A stretch of DNA of 64,000 nt from a phage: NCBI GenBank assembly GCA_022897995.1, contig GCA_022897995.1_4763.1; one strand, written 5' to 3'. Position 1 is the stretch's first letter. The number at the start of each line of letters is the position of its first letter. The translations under genes and the position numbers were made by a program. Below the pieces are notes generated by a model that searched no databases, was not told the DNA's origin, and saw nothing but the letters and a program-made list of their open reading frames with translations. Shown piece after piece: positions 3,361-48,317 of this stretch.

Positions 3361-5469
3361 ATGAAAATGCATATTGATAATGAAGAAGTATTTGGCAGTG
3401 ACTTGAGCGGTGCGGTTGATTTTTCACTGAAAGCAAGTAGCAAGGCTTTTATGGTGCTTTCTAAGAACACTTATCAATATTGTGAGCGTGCTTGCGTCCG
3501 TGAGTATTCGTGCAATGCTACCGACACTCACAAAGAAGCCGGAACCTTAGATCGTCCGTTTGATATTCATTTACCGACTGCAATCGAACCGTATTTTTCT
3601 GTGCGTGATTATGGTACTGGTATTCCGTCTAAGAAAGAATTAGAACAACTGTTTACGGTTTACTTTGAATCAACCAAAGACCAGACTAATGATTATATCG
3701 GATCTTTTGGTTTGGGTGCGAAGTCTGCTTATAGCTATACCGACACCTTTACAATCGTAAACTACTACAATGGTCGCGCTTATGGCTTTACTGCATTTGT
3801 GCAAAACTCTATGCCGAAAATGGTGCAGATTTTCGACGAACCGACCTATGAAGACAATGGTCTGAAAATCACTATTCCGGTGAAAGAAAAAGACATTCAG
3901 ACATGGCATCGAGAAGCACAATTTGTACTGCGTCATTTTGGGGAACACAAACCTAATATCAATGCCATCGAAATTAATTATTTCCCTAGCTTTGATAATT
4001 ATTATGTGTGTAATGGACGTGATAACGATTCCTATGTGGTATATGCAATCATGGGTAAGATCCAGTATCCGATCCCGTATGAATATGTTCGCGGAACATG
4101 GTTAGAAGCTGTAAACCACCAGCACCAGACCATTTACATTAATTTTGAGTTGGGTGATCTGGACCTTATGCCATCGCGTGAAGAAGTTCACTTGTCAATT
4201 GAGACTAAAGCGAACATCGAAAAACGCATTGCAGAAATCAATGAAATGATGTTGGAAAAGGTTAAAGAGAAGATCGCCAACATTAAAACAGAGCGTAAAC
4301 TTGCTCAATTTATGAGCGAGTATTCATCGACGCAACGCAATATTATTAGCAAGATGGGTAAGATCGGACAATGGGACGATCCGGTAGCAATCTATAATAA
4401 GTTTGTGAATGCGGGTAAATATTCGCCTAATGACGTAGAAGGTCAGGTGTATACTCTGTATCGTACTCGTCACACAATCAGTAAATTGCGACCTGCTTTC
4501 GTTAGCAGTCAATACAACATTACGCATTTTGTATGGATGCATAAAGAAGATATTACGTGTCTTATTGATGATACCGATAAACCGAAACTGCGTGCACTGA
4601 CTCTTAACGGCATGGTCCAGGAATATGGAATCAATAAAAAAGTACTGGTGTTCCGTCAGAACAACGAAAAACATATGGAGACTTTCGAGTACATCAAACA
4701 GTATTATGATGATTCTGAAATGACCGTGATTAAGGTATCAGAGGCCGATGATCTGCGTGCTAAAGCAGTTAAGCCGGAGAAGACCGAGCGTACACAACGT
4801 GAAGCTACTCCCAAGCTGCCTAACGTGTATATCATGGAAAAGATTGGTGACAGTTGGCATAAAACCAGCCATCACATGAAAGCGGCAGAGATTCGCGAGT
4901 TATCAGGCTTGCACATGTTCCGCGTAGGTGATGCATTCGAAAGCCGTAGCCGTCAATCGATCTATAATGAAAATACATTACATACGGCGCTTGACTACTT
5001 CGGGGTAACAAAGTATATTATTACTCGAAACGAGACACAAAAATATCTCGTTGACGAACAATTGGAATGTGCGCTAGAATTTGTTCGCGGTAAGCTGGCT
5101 GGTCTGGCTAAGAAGGTTAAGACCAATCATCTGGGGTATGGCGAATATCTGGGTGTGATCACTATGTTGTTTCATGACGATGAACTAGAACGCTGTGTTC
5201 CAGAATTTATTGACAGACTGTACGGTCGTCATTATAATAAAGAGGTTTCCAAGTTACTCCTTCATACTCGTTGGATTATGGACGAAGAAACTAAAAAGAT
5301 TTGTGATGAAAAATTCACGGCAGCAAACGAACGAATTAAAGCAGTTTGTGCGAAGTTTAAAGAGAATAGCCCGTTACTGTATGATATTGTAGATAACTGG
5401 TATCGTATTCTGCATAACGACAAACGCGCACAAGACTTTATGAAACTGGTTAAGAATGTTAAATTTTAA
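3361..5469 (+). CDS. rIIA: rIIA protein (membrane-associated, N-terminal GHKL ATPase-like domain)
   Basis: 702 aa (T4 rIIA about 725 aa); motifs DYGTGIP and GSFGLGAKSAY; sits between 39 and rIIB as in T-even phages. Confidence 0.8.
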   Translation: MKMHIDNEEVFGSDLSGAVDFSLKASSKAFMVLSKNTYQYCERACVREYSCNATDTHKEAGTLDRPFDIHLPTAIEPYFSVRDYGTGIPSKKELEQLFTVYFESTKDQTNDYIGSFGLGAKSAYSYTDTFTIVNYYNGRAYGFTAFVQNSMPKMVQIFDEPTYEDNGLKITIPVKEKDIQTWHREAQFVLRHFGEHKPNINAIEINYFPSFDNYYVCNGRDNDSYVVYAIMGKIQYPIPYEYVRGTWLEAVNHQHQTIYINFELGDLDLMPSREEVHLSIETKANIEKRIAEINEMMLEKVKEKIANIKTERKLAQFMSEYSSTQRNIISKMGKIGQWDDPVAIYNKFVNAGKYSPNDVEGQVYTLYRTRHTISKLRPAFVSSQYNITHFVWMHKEDITCLIDDTDKPKLRALTLNGMVQEYGINKKVLVFRQNNEKHMETFEYIKQYYDDSEMTVIKVSEADDLRAKAVKPEKTERTQREATPKLPNVYIMEKIGDSWHKTSHHMKAAEIRELSGLHMFRVGDAFESRSRQSIYNENTLHTALDYFGVTKYIITRNETQKYLVDEQLECALEFVRGKLAGLAKKVKTNHLGYGEYLGVITMLFHDDELERCVPEFIDRLYGRHYNKEVSKLLLHTRWIMDEETKKICDEKFTAANERIKAVCAKFKENSPLLYDIVDNWYRILHNDKRAQDFMKLVKNVKF

Positions 5470-18280: not shown

Positions 18281-18299
18281 AGCGGGGAGAATCCCCGCT
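18281..18299 (-). terminator. intergenic hairpin after gene 36
   Basis: AGCGGGGAgaaTCCCCGCT palindrome, followed by TTTTCT on the minus strand. Confidence 0.45.
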
Positions 18300-34247: not shown

Positions 34248-34300
34248 TTGACGCGGGGAGAAATCCCCGCTATAATTCAACCATCAAAAACAAGTGAGGA
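34248..34300 (+). promoter_or_regulatory. sigma70-like promoter with inverted repeat in the spacer
   Basis: TTGACG 34248-34253, spacer GCGGGGAGAAATCCCCGC, TATAAT 34271-34276. Confidence 0.55.
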
Positions 34301-42255: not shown

Positions 42256-42269
42256 TGATTTTAAACGGC

Positions 42270-42502: not shown

Positions 42503-42971
42503 AATTGATATCTATGCGGGTGGACCTTATCCATCGGGTGAATTGAGCAACTTCAATAAAAGACCATTCCGTCTATTTGGTTGCGATATTAACAGCACAG
42601 AAGGATTTTTACAGGGATTAAGATTCAAGAATCCAGAAAAGCAAAGAGAAATCTTTTTGATGCACGGTGGCAAAGCAAAAAGAACCGGAAGAACTGAAAA
42701 GATTGAGAATCACATGCTATATTTTCAGGGTCGCCCGATTCATCGAATGAGTGAGCATTATTACAGACTGGTACATCTGGCATTTGTTACGATGGCACGG
42801 AATAACCCAGAATTTTGTAAAGCATTACTCGCTACCGGAAATAAGAAATTACGTCATAGCATAGGTGGAACTGATCCGTTAAAGACTATATTGACCGAAT
42901 CAGAATTTTGTAGTATCCTCAATGATATTCGTGAACGTTTAACAAAACGAGGTGAAAATGTCAATTCTTAA
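42492..42971 (+). CDS. NADAR-like (YbiA/DUF1768) domain protein
   Basis: Pattern LSNF...PF...G......EhxxQxxKF and ALLATG resembles the YbiA/NADAR family; 159 aa. Confidence 0.45.
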   Translation: MTSEIDIYAGGPYPSGELSNFNKRPFRLFGCDINSTEGFLQGLRFKNPEKQREIFLMHGGKAKRTGRTEKIENHMLYFQGRPIHRMSEHYYRLVHLAFVTMARNNPEFCKALLATGNKKLRHSIGGTDPLKTILTESEFCSILNDIRERLTKRGENVNS

Positions 42972-44454
42972 TATCATTAACCAGCTTGCAGCAACAGACA
43001 AAACATCGCTGAAAGAAAAGATTCTGAAAGAATCTGCAAGCAATGAAACGCTGAAAGAATGCTTTTATCTGGCATATTGCAAACAGGTTACGTTTGGCGT
43101 AAAGAAATACGATAAACCATCGCGCTATTCGTCTGTATTGTCTTTATCCGGTGCATTACAAGTCTTTAAAAATAAACTTGCCACGCGTCAAGTAACTGGT
43201 AATGCTGCATTACAGCTAGTTACCGATACTCTGACTTGCTTGTCAGAAGACGATGCTAAAGTTGCAATGATGGTATTGAATCGAGACCTAGAATGCGGTT
43301 GTTCCGCTACCACCGCAAACAAGGTATGGAAGAAACTGATCCCCCAGCAACCATGCCACCTTGCATCGTCATATTCTGATAAGGCTATTGCTAATATCAA
43401 ATATCCGGCGTATGCACAGCTTAAAAGCGATGGCGCTCGTGGTATGGCTGATATTGACGGGGAAACATTAGCAATCTATACCCGTTCAGGTAATATCTAT
43501 CAGGGACTTGATGATTTGTTTTCTGTTTTAGAGCGTCTACGAGGCCGTGGAATTGTTCTAGATGGCGAATTGGTATATATGCCTACCCTTTCGCAAACAC
43601 CAGCGCAGAACTTCGTTGAGAGCGTTTATGATGGTACTCTGTCATGGATATTTGAAGAAGAGGAAATGCCATTAACGCCAGTAGCGGAAGCAGTGAAAGA
43701 ATCCGTTGTTGCAGATCGTCAGACCGGAAATGGTATCCTCAACAAATCACTGAAAGGAACTATTCCAAAAGAAGAAGCCCAATGTATTGTTTACACTGTC
43801 TGGGATGTTATCGACCGTGATGTGTATTACGGAAACGAGAAAGCAACGAAGCAATATAAAGATCGATTCGAAGAACTAAAACAGATTGTTGAAGAACTTA
43901 ACGATCCTCGTGTGCAGATAATCGAAAATACTGTAGTTAACAATATCGATGAAGCTCGCGAAGTATATCATCGCTATGTAAACATGGGCTTAGAAGGTAT
44001 TATCCTTAAAAATTTACATGGTGTATTTGAAGATCGTCGCAGTAAAGATCAGGTTAAATTTAAAGAAGTGATTGACTTCGACGCGGAAATTGTTGATGTA
44101 TATCCGCATAGTAAAGATCCTAATAAGGTAGGCGGTTTTACTGTCCGTAGTGCGTGCGGACGAATGATGACTAACACCGGGTCGGGATTGACAGACACCA
44201 CAACCGAAAAAGGTGATGATGGTATCGAACGTGTGATTCCGTTAGATCGTCGAAATGAACTCGACCGAGAAATGTTATGGGCTGACCGTCATAACCTGAT
44301 TGGAAAAGTCATTGAGATGACATGCAACGGGTATATCCGCAGCAAATCACGTAAAGAAGATGAACCGGAGTTCTCTTTATTTCTCCCGATCATCAAACGT
44401 ATTCGCTACGACAAGACCACTGCAAATACAGTAAAAGAGGTATTCGATGTGTGA
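42952..44454 (+). CDS. 30: ATP-dependent DNA ligase
   Basis: 500 aa (T4 ligase about 487 aa); adenylation motif KSDG (AQLKSDGARG). Confidence 0.9.
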   Translation: MKMSILNIINQLAATDKTSLKEKILKESASNETLKECFYLAYCKQVTFGVKKYDKPSRYSSVLSLSGALQVFKNKLATRQVTGNAALQLVTDTLTCLSEDDAKVAMMVLNRDLECGCSATTANKVWKKLIPQQPCHLASSYSDKAIANIKYPAYAQLKSDGARGMADIDGETLAIYTRSGNIYQGLDDLFSVLERLRGRGIVLDGELVYMPTLSQTPAQNFVESVYDGTLSWIFEEEEMPLTPVAEAVKESVVADRQTGNGILNKSLKGTIPKEEAQCIVYTVWDVIDRDVYYGNEKATKQYKDRFEELKQIVEELNDPRVQIIENTVVNNIDEAREVYHRYVNMGLEGIILKNLHGVFEDRRSKDQVKFKEVIDFDAEIVDVYPHSKDPNKVGGFTVRSACGRMMTNTGSGLTDTTTEKGDDGIERVIPLDRRNELDREMLWADRHNLIGKVIEMTCNGYIRSKSRKEDEPEFSLFLPIIKRIRYDKTTANTVKEVFDV

Positions 44455-44923
44455 TAATGAAGGGGCGAAAGCCCCTAAACCTAAAAAATTGTCAAAGAAA
44501 GAGCAACGCCAGATCCTGAAAATGAAATACGGTGGACGTTGTGCCTATTGTGGCGAGGAACTAGGGGATCGCTGGCACGCAGACCACATCAAACCAGTAT
44601 TGCGACGCTCAAAAGTAGTCTATGATGAAAATGGACGAATTGCCCGTAATGATGATGGATCGTGGAAGTATAAGGTTGTAGGAATGCATAAACCGGAGCA
44701 CGATATACTTGATAACATGAATCCGGCTTGTGTGCAATGCAATCTTTACAAAAGCTGTATGGGCTTAGAATACTGGCGTAAGTGTATACGCGAGAACTTC
44801 CAGAAGTACATTCAACGTAACATGGGATTACGTGCGGCTAAACGCTTTGGCTTGCTTTCAATCCACGATCAACCAGTAGAATTTTATTTCGAAAAGTACG
44901 AGCGCGAGCATCAAGAAAAATAA
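44447..44923 (+). CDS. HNH endonuclease (possible free-standing homing endonuclease)
   Basis: CAYCG...HADHIKP...N...CVQCNLYK His-Me finger motif; a GGGGCGAAAGCCCC hairpin lies in the first codons, so the true start may be the internal ATG near 44522. Confidence 0.55.
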   Translation: MCDNEGAKAPKPKKLSKKEQRQILKMKYGGRCAYCGEELGDRWHADHIKPVLRRSKVVYDENGRIARNDDGSWKYKVVGMHKPEHDILDNMNPACVQCNLYKSCMGLEYWRKCIRENFQKYIQRNMGLRAAKRFGLLSIHDQPVEFYFEKYEREHQEK

Positions 44924-44937
44924 TTCAAAAAAAGTTG

Positions 44938-44996
44938 TTGACAGGGGATCACCGATCCCCTATACTACACACATACCGAAACGAACTAGGAGAATC
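44938..44996 (+). promoter_or_regulatory. sigma70-like promoter with stem-loop in the spacer
   Basis: TTGACA 44938-44943, spacer GGGGATCACCGATCCCC (perfect palindrome), TATACT 44961-44966; leader CACATACCGAAACGAACTAGGAGAATCA. Confidence 0.65.
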
Positions 44997-45000
44997 AATT

Positions 45001-45180
45001 ATGAACTTCAACGAAATCATCGCTAAAATCCGCTACAACGAAGAAACCATTGAACTGATGCAAAACAATATCACCAATGGTTATATGATTGCAGCGTCAC
45101 AAGAAATCATTGATTTGACAGTAGCAGAAAATGCTCAGTTGAAACATCAACTTTCAACGGCTGGCGTGATTGTTATGTAA
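45001..45180 (+). CDS. hypothetical protein
   Basis: ATG 45001 directly after the conserved leader and SD. Confidence 0.45.
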   Translation: MNFNEIIAKIRYNEETIELMQNNITNGYMIAASQEIIDLTVAENAQLKHQLSTAGVIVM

Positions 45181-45197
45181 TAAAGAGAGGTGACTAA

Positions 45198-45530
45198 ATG
45201 GCAAAAGTTCAGGTAGGCGAGGTCTTCAAAATGGAAGACCATACCGTAGAAGAGATGAAAGGCGCAGTATTGAAAGTAATTAATTCAATGTGGCGTAGTG
45301 TTCTTTACATCAACTTTATCGACGGTGATGTGTGGTGGGCTAGTGATAACGTTAAATGGGGCGTTAAATGGGACGAAGAAGGCAATATGGTCATCAAGTT
45401 CTACAAAGGTCATACTCACTGGTTAGGAACAGAGGATGTTGTAGAAGTTCTGGCGGTTGATGTTATGCCAGGAGAGATCGAAAGTCTTAGCGGAACCGCA
45501 AAAGAAGCATTGACACGCCATTTCGTGTGA
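45198..45530 (+). CDS. hypothetical protein
   Basis: 110 aa ORF with SD AGAGAGGTGACT. Confidence 0.45.
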   Translation: MAKVQVGEVFKMEDHTVEEMKGAVLKVINSMWRSVLYINFIDGDVWWASDNVKWGVKWDEEGNMVIKFYKGHTHWLGTEDVVEVLAVDVMPGEIESLSGTAKEALTRHFV

Positions 45531-45587
45531 TGTAATATAACAATCATCGGGAGGGGCAATACTCTCCCACAAATTGAGGATAATATT

Positions 45588-45896
45588 ATGGAACGTACCA
45601 ATTTGTTTGTAACCGAACCTTTCGTTGAAGGCAACAAGAACCTTGCTAATACGGTTATTCTTTACGAAGATTGGATCTTTTACATTGACGAGAATTTAGA
45701 CGTATATTGTCGTCCAACTCCAAATGACTCATTCTATATCGAAGAAAACGATACACATAATCATTGGTATAACGGAAACGACGAAACAGACCTTGCTATT
45801 GTTCTCGAATCAGGTGTAGAATCGGAACATGCAGATGAAGTAGCGGATAAATTTGTACAATACGCATATAAAGATAAAGATGAGGATGAAGAATAA
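45588..45896 (+). CDS. hypothetical acidic protein
   Basis: 102 aa ORF with SD GAGGATAATATT. Confidence 0.45.
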   Translation: MERTNLFVTEPFVEGNKNLANTVILYEDWIFYIDENLDVYCRPTPNDSFYIEENDTHNHWYNGNDETDLAIVLESGVESEHADEVADKFVQYAYKDKDEDEE

Positions 45897-45903
45897 AAAG
45901 TTG

Positions 45904-45962
45904 TTGACAGGGGATCGGTGATCCCCTATACTACACACATACCAACGAGATATAGGAGAATC
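45904..45962 (+). promoter_or_regulatory. sigma70-like promoter with stem-loop in the spacer, near-identical to the copy at 44938
   Basis: TTGACA 45904-45909, spacer GGGGATCGGTGATCCCC, TATACT 45927-45932; same leader and SD. Confidence 0.65.
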
Positions 45963-45966
45963 AAAA

Positions 45967-46134
45967 ATGTTCCAGACTAAAGCAGAATGCGAAGCATACA
46001 TTGTAGCAAACCACGGTGAAGACTACCTGAAATTCGATATCGTAGTAGCACAGAAGATCACCGGAATGGTTGCAAAATATCTGGGTGTTAAAGAAGGTTA
46101 CTATCCAAGCAACGCACCAGAAATTAACAAATAA
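45967..46134 (+). CDS. hypothetical small protein
   Basis: 55 aa ORF after TAGGAGAATCAAAA; too short for the ORF track. Confidence 0.4.
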   Translation: MFQTKAECEAYIVANHGEDYLKFDIVVAQKITGMVAKYLGVKEGYYPSNAPEINK

Positions 46135-46148
46135 TTTTATAAAAAGTG

Positions 46149-46213
46149 TTGACAGGGGAGACACCCTCCCCTATAATATACACATCGAAACGAGATACCA
46201 ATTAGGAGAATCA
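46149..46213 (+). promoter_or_regulatory. sigma70-like promoter with stem-loop in the spacer
   Basis: TTGACA 46149-46154, spacer GGGGAGACACCCTCCCC, TATAAT 46172-46177; leader ACACATCGAAACGAGA...TAGGAGAATCA. Confidence 0.65.
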
Positions 46214-46217
46214 AACA

Positions 46218-46469
46218 ATGGCTAACATCGAAACCGCAAAGAAAATCGCTAAAGACCTGAACGTTAAAGGCTTCCGTAAACTGAAATTACAGCGTGTACG
46301 CTACACCATCGGCAAACAGTGCTCTTTCATGAGCGAAGAAGTTGCTAACAGCCTCATCGATAACCTGATCGCGGCTGGCTGGGAAGTTACGGATCTGAAA
46401 ACTTGCAGCGAACTGGCTAACAAAGGTCTTTTAGATTCTGTTACTATCAAACCAATGGGGGCAGCGTGA
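46218..46469 (+). CDS. hypothetical protein
   Basis: 83 aa starting MANIET, the same first five codons as the ORF at 48105; first gene after the promoter. Confidence 0.45.
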   Translation: MANIETAKKIAKDLNVKGFRKLKLQRVRYTIGKQCSFMSEEVANSLIDNLIAAGWEVTDLKTCSELANKGLLDSVTIKPMGAA

Positions 46470-47182
46470 AACAAAAATTAATATTCTGCAACTTTGACGG
46501 ATCGGGGATAATGGGGCTAGAATGGGCTAAAGCAGGTCATAAGGTGATCTGCTTTAATGCTGACGATGGCGACCACGGTACATACAAAAAGTATAATACC
46601 AGATTTGAACATCCAAACATTACCTATGTAAACACATGGATTGATTTGAACTGGCTGGAAAGAGCAATGGACCTTGAATGGGGGAAACCGGATATTATCT
46701 TTGCATTCCCACCGTGCACAAATTTAGCTGTTAGTGGCGCTGCACACTTTGAACGAAAGAAACGAGAGCAAGGACCATTGATTCAAGTTCATGATGTGAG
46801 GGCAGCTAAAATAACCGCTTATTTGGGTGAATGGCTAGGAGTTCCCTACATGATAGAGAATCCTGTAAGCGTTATCTCTAGCATGTGGCGTAAGCCTGAT
46901 TACATGTTCCATCCGTGGGAATATGGTGGTTATTTGCCGGAAGATGATAAACATCCTACGTTTCCTGAGTATATCGCCGCCCGTGATATGTACCCGAAAA
47001 AGACTTGCTTATGGACCGGACAAGGCTTTATAATGCCAGAAAAGAAACCGTTGCCGATTAATAAAGGGTACAGTAAACAGCATTCTAAGCTAGGCGGGAA
47101 AGGAACCAGAACAAAGACTATCAGGTCACTTACCCCGCGAGGATTTGCAAAGGCAGTATTTGAAGCCAATAAGGATCTATAA
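46466..47182 (+). CDS. C5-cytosine methyltransferase-like protein (SAM-dependent, compact)
   Basis: Motif I-like FCNFDGSGIMG, motif IV-like FAFPPCTNLAVSG (PC catalytic Cys), motif VI-like MIENPVS, C-terminal RSLTPRGFAKAV; 238 aa with only a short candidate target-recognition region. Confidence 0.45.
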   Translation: MKQKLIFCNFDGSGIMGLEWAKAGHKVICFNADDGDHGTYKKYNTRFEHPNITYVNTWIDLNWLERAMDLEWGKPDIIFAFPPCTNLAVSGAAHFERKKREQGPLIQVHDVRAAKITAYLGEWLGVPYMIENPVSVISSMWRKPDYMFHPWEYGGYLPEDDKHPTFPEYIAARDMYPKKTCLWTGQGFIMPEKKPLPINKGYSKQHSKLGGKGTRTKTIRSLTPRGFAKAVFEANKDL

Positions 47183-47511
47183 TGAGATTGTTTAAGTATT
47201 CTCTAACGTCAAATTACGATAAACAAGGTCATTGCATCCGTTGCCCTAATTGCCATAGCCATAACATTGAAAGCAAGATCACCGATCATATTGATGGACT
47301 TTGGTCGCCAGCAAGCGAGATAGAATACTATTGCGCTGATTGTGGAATTGTAGTAGCATATTGGGCATACGGATCATATGATCCTTACTTCCAGATGGGA
47401 GAGCGTTCAATCCCTGCTCTTATCTGGAGAATTAAGAACAATATCCGGCATTCATGGGATGAGTTCTTAAAAGATATTGATTTACGTGATGATCCATTCA
47501 GGAGACTATAA
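47182..47511 (+). CDS. zinc-ribbon protein
   Basis: CIRCPNCHSH ... YYCADCG; TAATG overlap with the upstream methyltransferase-like gene. Confidence 0.4.
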   Translation: MRLFKYSLTSNYDKQGHCIRCPNCHSHNIESKITDHIDGLWSPASEIEYYCADCGIVVAYWAYGSYDPYFQMGERSIPALIWRIKNNIRHSWDEFLKDIDLRDDPFRRL

Positions 47512-48028
47512 CATGAACAGATTAACGCCTAAACGCCGTTACTATACCAATACTAAAAACTTTGTCATCTCTGTTTATGAGGCGTGGTTAGAAGATGGAT
47601 ATATCAACATGAACCCAGATTATCAGCGTCCTTTAGTATGGGACACCGAAAACAAACGTATGTTTATCGAAAACCTGATTAATGATTTTCCGGTTGGTGC
47701 TATCGCAATGGCTAAGATTGATGATGGCTCTCGCTATGAGATCGAAATCGTGGACGGTAAACAGCGTTTAAACGCAATATTCTCTTTCATGAAGGATGAG
47801 TTTAGCATTGCTGGTAATGATGATTCTATGCTGTATTACAGCGATTTTACGCCAGCAGAAAAGCGACGTTTCCGAAATCTCGGACTACCAGCGATCATGA
47901 TGGAAGAGAGCACACGAGAAGACCGATTAGAGTATTTCTACAAAACAAACTTTTTCGGTGTGCCTCAATCGGAAGAACATCGCCAGCACGTAATTGCCCT
48001 ATTGCAAGATGAGCAATTAAAAAAATAA
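47477..48028 (+). CDS. DUF262 (ParB/GmrS-N-like) domain protein
   Basis: DYQRPLVW and IVDGKQRLNAI motifs as in DUF262 (DYQR...W, DGQQR); 183 aa stand-alone; overlaps the upstream ORF. Confidence 0.45.
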   Translation: MIYVMIHSGDYNMNRLTPKRRYYTNTKNFVISVYEAWLEDGYINMNPDYQRPLVWDTENKRMFIENLINDFPVGAIAMAKIDDGSRYEIEIVDGKQRLNAIFSFMKDEFSIAGNDDSMLYYSDFTPAEKRRFRNLGLPAIMMEESTREDRLEYFYKTNFFGVPQSEEHRQHVIALLQDEQLKK

Positions 48029-48039
48029 CTAAAAAGTTG

Positions 48040-48100
48040 TTGACATAACAGAGGGTGTATATCATAATACACCCATACCGAAACGAACTACTAAGGAGTA
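48040..48100 (+). promoter_or_regulatory. sigma70-like promoter with inverted repeat over the -10
   Basis: TTGACA 48040-48045, 17 nt spacer, CATAAT 48063-48068; GGGTGTATatcataatACACCC stem; leader ATACCGAAACGAACTACTAAGGAGTATCA. Confidence 0.6.
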
Positions 48101-48104
48101 TCAA

Positions 48105-48317
48105 ATGGCTAACATCGAAATCATCATTACCGACGTAACTTATGACCGCATCAACGAAATCGGTACTGCATTACTGGAAGATGGAACAACTCGTACCATC
48201 AACTACGCAGAATACGTTGAAATGCGCGGTTGGATTAAACGAGTAGGAAAATATATCCTGATTGAAAAAGACTATTCAGGATACACCTTAGAGCAATTGC
48301 TTGATGGTGCATTATAA
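48105..48317 (+). CDS. hypothetical protein
   Basis: 70 aa starting MANIE, the same first five codons as the ORF at 46218. Confidence 0.45.
   Translation: MANIEIIITDVTYDRINEIGTALLEDGTTRTINYAEYVEMRGWIKRVGKYILIEKDYSGYTLEQLLDGAL

Follow-up and report, generated by a model that had tools for sequence, protein, structure and literature searches.

Paired promoter cassettes downstream of the DNA ligase gene of a Krischvirus phage as members of the PeSL family

Two repeated promoter cassettes in the window (the whole 64,000-nt stretch of phage DNA analysed here) are members of the already described family of promoter-early stem-loops (PeSLs), at the locus that defines that family. We consider it highly probable, at roughly 90%, that both combine an early promoter, an attenuating hairpin and a recombination patch. 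PeSL cassettes are ordinary for the RB49-like phage group. The original prediction had called a promoter spacer of this kind unusual; in RB49 and phi1, however, PeSLs most often have their stem-loop either in this position, between -35 and -10, or over the -10 (Arbiol, Comeau & Krisch 2010, PMC2839356).

Anatomy, orthology and distribution of the cassettes

The window aligned with Krischvirus genomes (RB49, ECD7, Brandy and others) at 96-97% identity and is itself the genome of a Krischvirus, an RB49-like, T4-type coliphage. Both cassettes, termed A and B, lie downstream of a DNA ligase gene that is followed by an HNH gene and then by small ORFs (Table 1). This order of ligase, HNH gene and small ORFans corresponds to ORF213 to ORF189 of RB49, where ORF213 is the ligase, ORF212 the HNH gene and ORF211 to ORF189 follow. 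It was in this hyperplastic region (HPR) downstream of the RB49 ligase that PeSLs were defined (PMC2839356). A Pfam scan of ten ORFs (44447-48317) returned an HNH domain, a GmrSD_N domain and a zinc ribbon below cut-off; for most of the small ORFs downstream of the HNH gene family matches were absent, and five of the six ORFs flanked by cassettes (45001-46469) had no Pfam match. The setting is therefore that of published PeSLs, an HPR of ORFans in a T4-type phage of the genus Krischvirus.

Table 1 Features of the cassettes and their surroundings in the window.
Feature	Position	Strand	Description
DNA ligase gene	42952..44454		followed by the HNH gene
HNH gene	44447..44923		Pfam HNH
Stop codon of upstream HNH gene and A-tract	44921..44933	+	TAA 44921-44923; A-tract 44927-44933; AT-rich 5' part of cassette A
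Cassette A promoter core	44938..44966	+	-35 TTGACA 44938-44943; spacer 44944-44960; -10 TATACT 44961-44966
Cassette A leader, SD and start codon	44967..45003	+	SD GGAG 44989-44992; ATG 45001-45003; 59-aa ORFan, RB49 ORF209 homologue
Stop codon of upstream ORFan	45894..45899	+	TAA 45894-45896; overlaps cassette B A-tract
Cassette B promoter core	45904..45932	+	-35 TTGACA 45904-45909; spacer 45910-45926; -10 TATACT 45927-45932
Cassette B leader, SD and start codon	45933..45969	+	SD GGAG 45955-45958; ATG 45967-45969; 55-aa ORFan, RB49 ORF205 homologue
Third cassette, same class	46149..46220	+	TTGACA-GGGGAG-ACACC-CTCCCC-TATAAT, 12/12; leader, SD, ATG 46218; RB49 ORF190 homologue
Related cassette, different PeSL subclass	48040..48107	+	upstream tract and leader as in the pair
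Spacer-hairpin promoter elsewhere in the window	34248..34276	+	TTGACG-CGGGGA-GAAA-TCCCCG-C-TATAAT

The coordinates and sequences originally given for the two copies proved exact. The repeat unit spans 75 nt at 85% identity, and the copies are 966 nt apart start-to-start. Each is preceded at 8-15 nt by the stop codon of a co-directional upstream gene and by an A-tract, which in both copies is directly 5' of GTTGTTGACA; that of cassette A occupies -46 to -40, where the proximal subsite of an UP element would lie. Each promoter has a 17-nt spacer and matches the sigma-70 consensus at 11/12 positions. The spacers, GGGGATCACCGATCCCC in cassette A (GGGGATC-ACC-GATCCCC) and GGGGATCGGTGATCCCC in cassette B (GGGGATC-GGT-GATCCCC), consist of 7-bp arms around a 3-nt centre and are exact reverse complements of each other, as are the centres when compared between the copies. 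An eighth pair is added by the hexamer bases that border the spacer, A of TTGACA and T of TATACT. The spacer had been described as a perfect 17-nt palindrome; a sequence 17 nt long cannot be a perfect DNA palindrome, and neither centre is self-complementary. Similarly, the leaders had been called the same but for one optional G, and were found to differ by a 2-nt indel and substitutions (CACATACCGAAACGAAC vs CACATACCAACGAGAT).

The PeSL of RB49 and phi1 is a repeated intergenic motif composed of an AT-rich tract with an upstream stop codon, a near-perfect sigma-70 promoter (TTGACA-N17-TATAAT), a stem-loop, and an SD with a start codon; the stem-loop is a stable Gn-loop-Cn structure that may occupy any of five positions (PMC2839356). 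All of these parts are present in both copies: a TAA codon with an AT-rich tract, the near-consensus promoter, a stem of 7-8 bp, here placed between -35 and -10, and at the 3' end the SD and start codon of the next ORF. Cassette A is base-for-base identical to RB49 PeSL210/209 from the -35 through the ORF209 start (L009:6028). Cassette B is the orthologue of PeSL206/205 of RB49 and phi1, and its combination of a GGT loop with TATACT also occurs in phage KMB43. At cassette sites other annotators have placed promoters (GEC-3S) or a terminator (Makalu_003). The proposal of promoter cassettes with a stem-forming spacer is thus supported, and the pair agrees with the RB49 and phi1 elements in genus, locus, anatomy, dispersal as repeats and association with indels. 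Nothing essential is different, the module content of the window phage being the point at which the two diverge.

A further likeness concerns the RegB/S1 cleavage sites found in the SD regions of T4 early mRNAs (Durand et al. 2006, PMC1702504). At the end of the cassettes stands GGAGAATCAAA/T/C, in agreement with the consensus GGAGRAYARAA at 10/11 positions, a likeness of sequence only; position 8 is C in the cassettes, where T4 prefers A.

A census of the window comprised 26 sites on the + strand, each matching the promoter consensus at 11/12 or better except 21355 and 40794, at 10/12. Hairpins fill the spacer at four sites (34248, 44938, 45904 and 46149) and enclose the -10 at three (2270, 2638 and 48040), and two sites follow canonical terminators (29009 and 36512), reproducing the published PeSL subclasses. 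At 48040 the hairpin GGGTGTAT-ATCATA-ATACACCC (48053-48074) encloses a -10 of CATAAT. Spacer hairpins occur at promoters beyond chance: at least six end-anchored Watson-Crick pairs are found in 4.5e-4 of all 17-mers of the window, and in 3/17 promoter-like sites with a 17-nt spacer against an expectation of ~0.008, a count in which the two copies, being paralogues, represent one family and not independent events.

Three repeat families, D1, D2 and D4, were found in the window, and searches with the cassettes gave 376-425 matches spread over 59 records, exclusively of Krischvirus. Among the records listed, each genome held 4-9 places with a 131-nt query and 5-7 with a 96-nt query; the repetition is concentrated in hyperplastic regions, as in published PeSLs. 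With other inner stem pairs, the TTGACA-GGGG...CCCC-TATAAT design is also present in unrelated viral contigs of IMG/VR, including relatives of T4-like cyanophages (e.g. L022) and contigs of 357-366 kb; for one contig bearing the design (L025), megablast found no match among isolated phages. This distribution is in line with the published claim of a wide occurrence of PeSL-like elements among T4-like phages (Comeau et al. 2014, PMC4122927). The rV5 genome paper says nothing on spacer hairpins, and in the later literature we found no mechanistic follow-up of PeSLs and no transcript maps or transcript-end data for Krischvirus.

Covariation and transcription of the spacer hairpin

On its own the spacer hairpin folds at -10.4 kcal/mol, and when each copy is folded within 61 nt of context, both the MFE structure and the centroid retain it. 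We compared the window and nine Krischvirus isolates (10 phages) together with the loci of two Krischvirus IMG/VR contigs. The stems are always paired while their sequence varies (GGGGATC/GATCCCC, GGGGAT/ATCCCC, GGGGAG/CTCCCC and CGGGGA/TCCCCG), the loops measure 3-6 nt (ACC, GGT, GGC, ATC, GGGA, CACGT, ACACC and GTTAAA) and the spacer is 17-18 nt throughout. Across 11 distinct 17-nt spacers, 94.8% of cells pair; the covariation score was reached by 0/500 shuffles, and slid registers were only 51-71% paired. The four outer G-C pairs are invariant, which in 5/11 rows was imposed by the search pattern, and all three inner pairs show changes on both sides. Non-Watson-Crick positions within the stems are G.T on the + strand (five) or A.C (one or two); further 'C.A' mismatches are artefacts that arise where stems are drawn out into the fixed hexamers. 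Although the numbers are small, the excess of G.T is suggestive and weakly favours folding of the + strand.

As a separate observation, GATC occurs twice in the stem of the pair and is absent from the GGGGAG/CTCCCC variants. With 349 occurrences against 231 expected from base composition, the window shows no depletion of GATC.

Covariation of the dyad is also expected of a symmetric protein site, and a protein operator had been put forward in the original prediction. A dimeric DNA-binding protein of phage or host might recognise the GGGGATC/GATCCCC half-sites and so repress or time the early promoters: once bound at the spacer it would exclude RNA polymerase, and GGGGA...TCCCC is nearly invariant beside both hexamers in Krischvirus cassettes. 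The authors of the 2010 study also raised a DNA-binding protein, speculating that it might bind GGGG...CCCC, though for recombination (PMC2839356). However, a centre of 3, 4, 5 or 6 nt changes both the spacing of the half-sites and their helical phase, and conserved half-sites at a fixed spacing were not found; the inner stem positions undergo compensatory change rather than staying conserved. Furthermore, no common recognition sequence unites the early promoters of the window: others among them lack a hairpin or have an unrelated one, located upstream or around the -10. The mismatches lean to single-strand folding, and no candidate regulator was identified. We therefore judge an operator to be very unlikely. 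The pattern matches what a structural element doubling as a recombination patch would show, and not an operator of fixed spacing.

In the PeSL reading, each cassette would sit between two co-directional small genes, and the A-tract with TTGACA-N17-TATAMT would constitute a strong early promoter for host sigma-70, driving the downstream ORFan via the conserved leader and the GGAG SD. The promoter activity of PeSL206/205, the counterpart of cassette B, was ~13,000 Miller units of lacZ (PMC2839356). The promoter's own transcript starts ~7 nt past the -10 and so excludes the hairpin, which limits any role as RNA to read-through transcripts from upstream. On such RNA from the upstream gene, the transcribed spacer is predicted to form a G/C-rich hairpin of 8 bp with the A/U-only -10 hexamer on its 3' side. 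By extension from the published elements, this hairpin would attenuate or terminate upstream transcription in these copies too, thereby insulating each gene module.

The likeness to canonical Rho-independent terminators lies in a G/C-rich hairpin just after a stop codon and sense to the upstream gene. Canonical terminators have a U-run, whereas in the cassettes the 3' flank is the -10 hexamer, UAUACU or UAUAAU. The flank UAUACUACAC holds three U in its first 8 nt, and the tail TATACTAC has three T in 8 where a Rho-independent terminator has at least five U in 8; similarly, the flank UAUACUAC is not a U-run. In a terminator scan of the window requiring five T in 8, the spacer hairpins were not called, and true terminators with U-runs are located, for example, at 42267 (+), 51848 (-) and 48339 (-). 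With Rfam at E<=1, the region 44700-46400 gave two chance-level matches only, to a snoRNA and a miRNA model and far below gathering scores.

Efficient intrinsic termination at these hairpins is thus not predicted by textbook rules, and in the absence of a U-run attenuation is predicted to be weaker than at a canonical terminator. The all-A/U -10 hexamer may partly replace the U-tract, in which case the sites would be attenuators rather than strong terminators. By analogy, the published assay on a neighbouring hairpin suggests a stronger effect: the stem-loop of PeSL211/210 is reported to have cut read-through about as much as rrnB T1 (PMC2839356). The sole hairpin in the RB49 ORF211-210 intergenic region, GGGGATCACGTATCCCC (L009:5615), is 2 nt from the spacer of cassette A, and because the hairpins lack a U-run it is from this neighbouring element that the terminator strength of the present copies is estimated. 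The RNA stem first proposed matches the published PeSL stem-loop, described as a terminator or attenuator of upstream transcription.

Cassettes at the junctions of gene modules

Relative to RB49, the window is without ORF211/210, ORF207 and ORF204-191. With P denoting a PeSL, the gene order after the ligase is 212-211-P-210-P-209... in RB49, 212-P-210-P-209... in phi1, 212-P-209... in the window, ELT3 and Makalu_003, and 212-P-205... in G5211. Junctions were derived from block maps against RB49, GEC-3S, Makalu_003 and FL04, a site-by-phage table and a junction alignment. Across the 10 phages, differences in gene content have their boundaries at cassettes or no more than a few tens of nt away, so that the cassettes lie at or next to the junctions of indels or replacements between close relatives, as PeSLs do. 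Hairpin variants assort independently of their flanks in the same 10 phages: the hairpin at a given orthologous site varies from phage to phage, and a given hairpin recurs at different sites. Thus ACC, GGC, GGGA or GGGGAG-GTTAAA-CTCCCC precedes ORF209; GGT, ACC or GGGA precedes ORF205; and CACGT, GGT or GGC precedes ORF210.

Recombination between PeSL211/210 and PeSL210/209 of RB49 yields minicircles of ORF210, detected in infected cells and in virions (PMC2839356). PeSL210/209, the exact match of cassette A, is therefore one partner in that event. The arrangement HNH-PeSL-ORF209 of the window equals that of phi1 minus the ORF210 module, and cassette A joins a 5' flank of the type found at the PeSL upstream of ORF210 (211/210 in RB49, 212/210 in phi1) to the core and leader of PeSL210/209. 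Judged by this composition, cassette A is the expected genomic product of ORF210 excision. Likewise, HNH-PeSL-ORF205 in G5211 is the deletion to be expected from recombination between the sites of cassettes A and B.

Not every junction falls inside a cassette. The junction at ORF207 (45574-45590) lies outside the cassettes, and compared with RB49 the window has a deletion of ~4.1 kb that ends immediately before the 46149 cassette; a five-way alignment placed its crossover where the paralogous ORF205 and ORF191 have identical 3' ends. Both the window and FL04 are without ORF204 onward; the window retains the ORF205-type copy and FL04 the paralogous ORF191-type copy, the crossover in FL04 being inside a cassette, unlike that of the window.

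These crossover positions also bear on the possibility that the hairpin is a structure- or site-specific recombination site, in which folded single-stranded DNA resembling attC would be acted upon by a dedicated recombinase or nuclease that mobilises ORFan cassettes. The PeSL authors left site-specific recombination open, minicircles of a cassette with its ORFan were detected, and one crossover of an RB49 minicircle was mapped within the loop (PMC2839356); moreover, cassettes exist that are otherwise identical and differ in the loop only. An attC-like site would show one fixed crossover position, however, and positions differ among both natural recombinants, as deduced here, and published minicircles. 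Some crossovers lie between the A-tract and the stem, namely in cassette A and in the cassettes at 3995 of FL04 and 6058 of G5211, another is at the end of a paralogous ORF, and that of the phi1 minicircle is outside the stem-loop (PMC2839356). No recombinase gene was seen among the ten neighbouring ORFs scanned with Pfam (44447-48317). We accordingly hold a dedicated site-specific mechanism to be extremely improbable.

Variable crossover points fit general homologous recombination over short repeats instead, as the PeSL reading proposes. The dispersed direct repeats of ~75 nt would provide patches for the general homologous recombination of the phage, and with the cassettes as homology patches, modules between two of them could be deleted, inserted or swapped. 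Minicircles would be intermediates of this module exchange; they were shown experimentally in RB49 and phi1 at the locus downstream of the ligase (PMC2839356), and the comparative evidence assembled here supports the same recombination process.

Loop triplets and the meaning of the cassettes

The cassettes preceding ORF205 have the loop triplet GGT in the window and KMB43 and ACC in phi1 and GEC-3S; they are otherwise identical, save for A-runs that differ in length by a single A. A pair of reverse-complementary loops has a chance of ~1/64 per comparison, and in 12 genomes no reverse partner was seen for GGC, ATC or GGGA, the other loops. The dimorphism could have arisen by inversion of the centre or by conversion over a very short tract, with a GGT-type cassette as donor, both of which are equally compatible with the sequence.

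Precedents for such inversion exist. Ripley and co-workers reportedly traced quasipalindrome mutations in T4 rII to template switching, and loop inversions occur in the hairpins of chloroplast non-coding DNA. As in those systems, identical arms, here of 7 bp, enclose centres that are exact reverse complements, ACC and GGT; in contrast to them, a short conversion tract would here yield the same sequences. It is conceivable, if unlikely, that the centre flips recurrently, through template switching or cruciform-type inversion, and that PeSL hairpins are active single-stranded DNA structures in replication or recombination that mark or provoke the exchange of ORFan modules, possibly with a structure-specific protein. 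Were this true, the hairpins would be more than RNA attenuators and passive homology.

The correct annotation for the cassettes is that of early promoters fused to insulating hairpins, which act as joints for the gain and loss of small accessory genes in RB49-like phages. As such, they would explain the mosaic gene content downstream of the ligase, and predict modules that are able to excise as circles. One of these, the 966-bp module between the two copies, is already absent from G5211.

Centre triplet and Shine-Dalgarno region of the cassettes

In the window, the spacers of the two studied promoter-early stem-loop (PeSL) cassettes (44944-44960 and 45910-45926) are exact reverse complements of each other, with ACC at the centre of the first and GGT at that of the second. 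At the orthologous ORF205 site, the same ACC/GGT triplet is the sole difference between phages besides single-A length changes in A-runs (compared sequences L013:7616, L010:7616 and L039:~1525). Because these otherwise matching cassettes vary in the centre triplet only, their comparison suggests inversion of the loop or else a conversion tract confined to it.

In all three cassettes, the Shine-Dalgarno region fits the T4 RegB/S1 cleavage consensus GGAGRAYARAA (PMC1702504) at 10 of 11 positions; early transcripts of these cassettes may therefore be targeted by RegB.

Shine-Dalgarno regions and deletion junction in the window
Feature	Position	Sequence or detail
Shine-Dalgarno regions of the three cassettes	44989-44999, 45955-45965, 46199-46209	GGAGAATCAA(A/T/C)
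ORF 3' end and deletion junction	46085-46148	ORF at 45967-46134

A 4.1-kb absence and neighbouring ORFs

Relative to RB49 and phi1, approximately 4.1 kb (ORF204 to ORF191) is missing from the window, with the crossover lying where ORFs 205 and 191, paralogues of 168 nt each, have identical 3' ends. The related phage FL04 carries a corresponding deletion and retains the ORF191-type copy but, unlike the window, has its crossover within the cassette.

Downstream, the 183-aa product of the ORF at 47477-48028 contains a GmrSD_N (DUF262-type) domain (E=5e-20), which is unusual in a phage-borne gene; an anti-restriction or defence-related role is possible. The adjoining ORF (47182-47511) gave a zinc-ribbon match under the curated cut-off.

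Hairpin promoters elsewhere in the window and on IMG/VR contigs

The promoter at 2270-2330 possesses a long hairpin (AAAAGGGAGATTCTC / GGGAGTCTCCCTTTT) that holds the -10 element TATAAT in its loop and is followed by CTTTT. In contrast to the spacer class, this PeSL has a U-run and is genuinely terminator-like. The promoter-like site in the intergenic region 45510-45587 is a weaker one (TTGACA-N17-TAATAT, scoring 10/12), with the hairpin GGGAG-GGGCAATA-CTCCC behind it. The junction at which RB49 ORF207 is missing also falls here (45574-45590). At 18282-18298, a 7-bp spacer-type hairpin (GCGGGGAGAATCCCCGC) precedes the -10-like hexamer TAAAAT, with AGAAAA in the -35 place; this may be a degraded PeSL or another class of promoter.

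Promoters of the form TTGACA-GGGGAT-NNNNN-ATCCCC-TATAAT were found on IMG/VR contigs of 174-366 kb (L025:2200, L027:632, L032 on the minus strand and L024:3983), the stem being looser, at 5 bp, in L027 (357 kb). No isolated phage was a near match to L025. The leader and Shine-Dalgarno layout is similar as well, and jumbo phages may also possess PeSL-like spacer hairpins.
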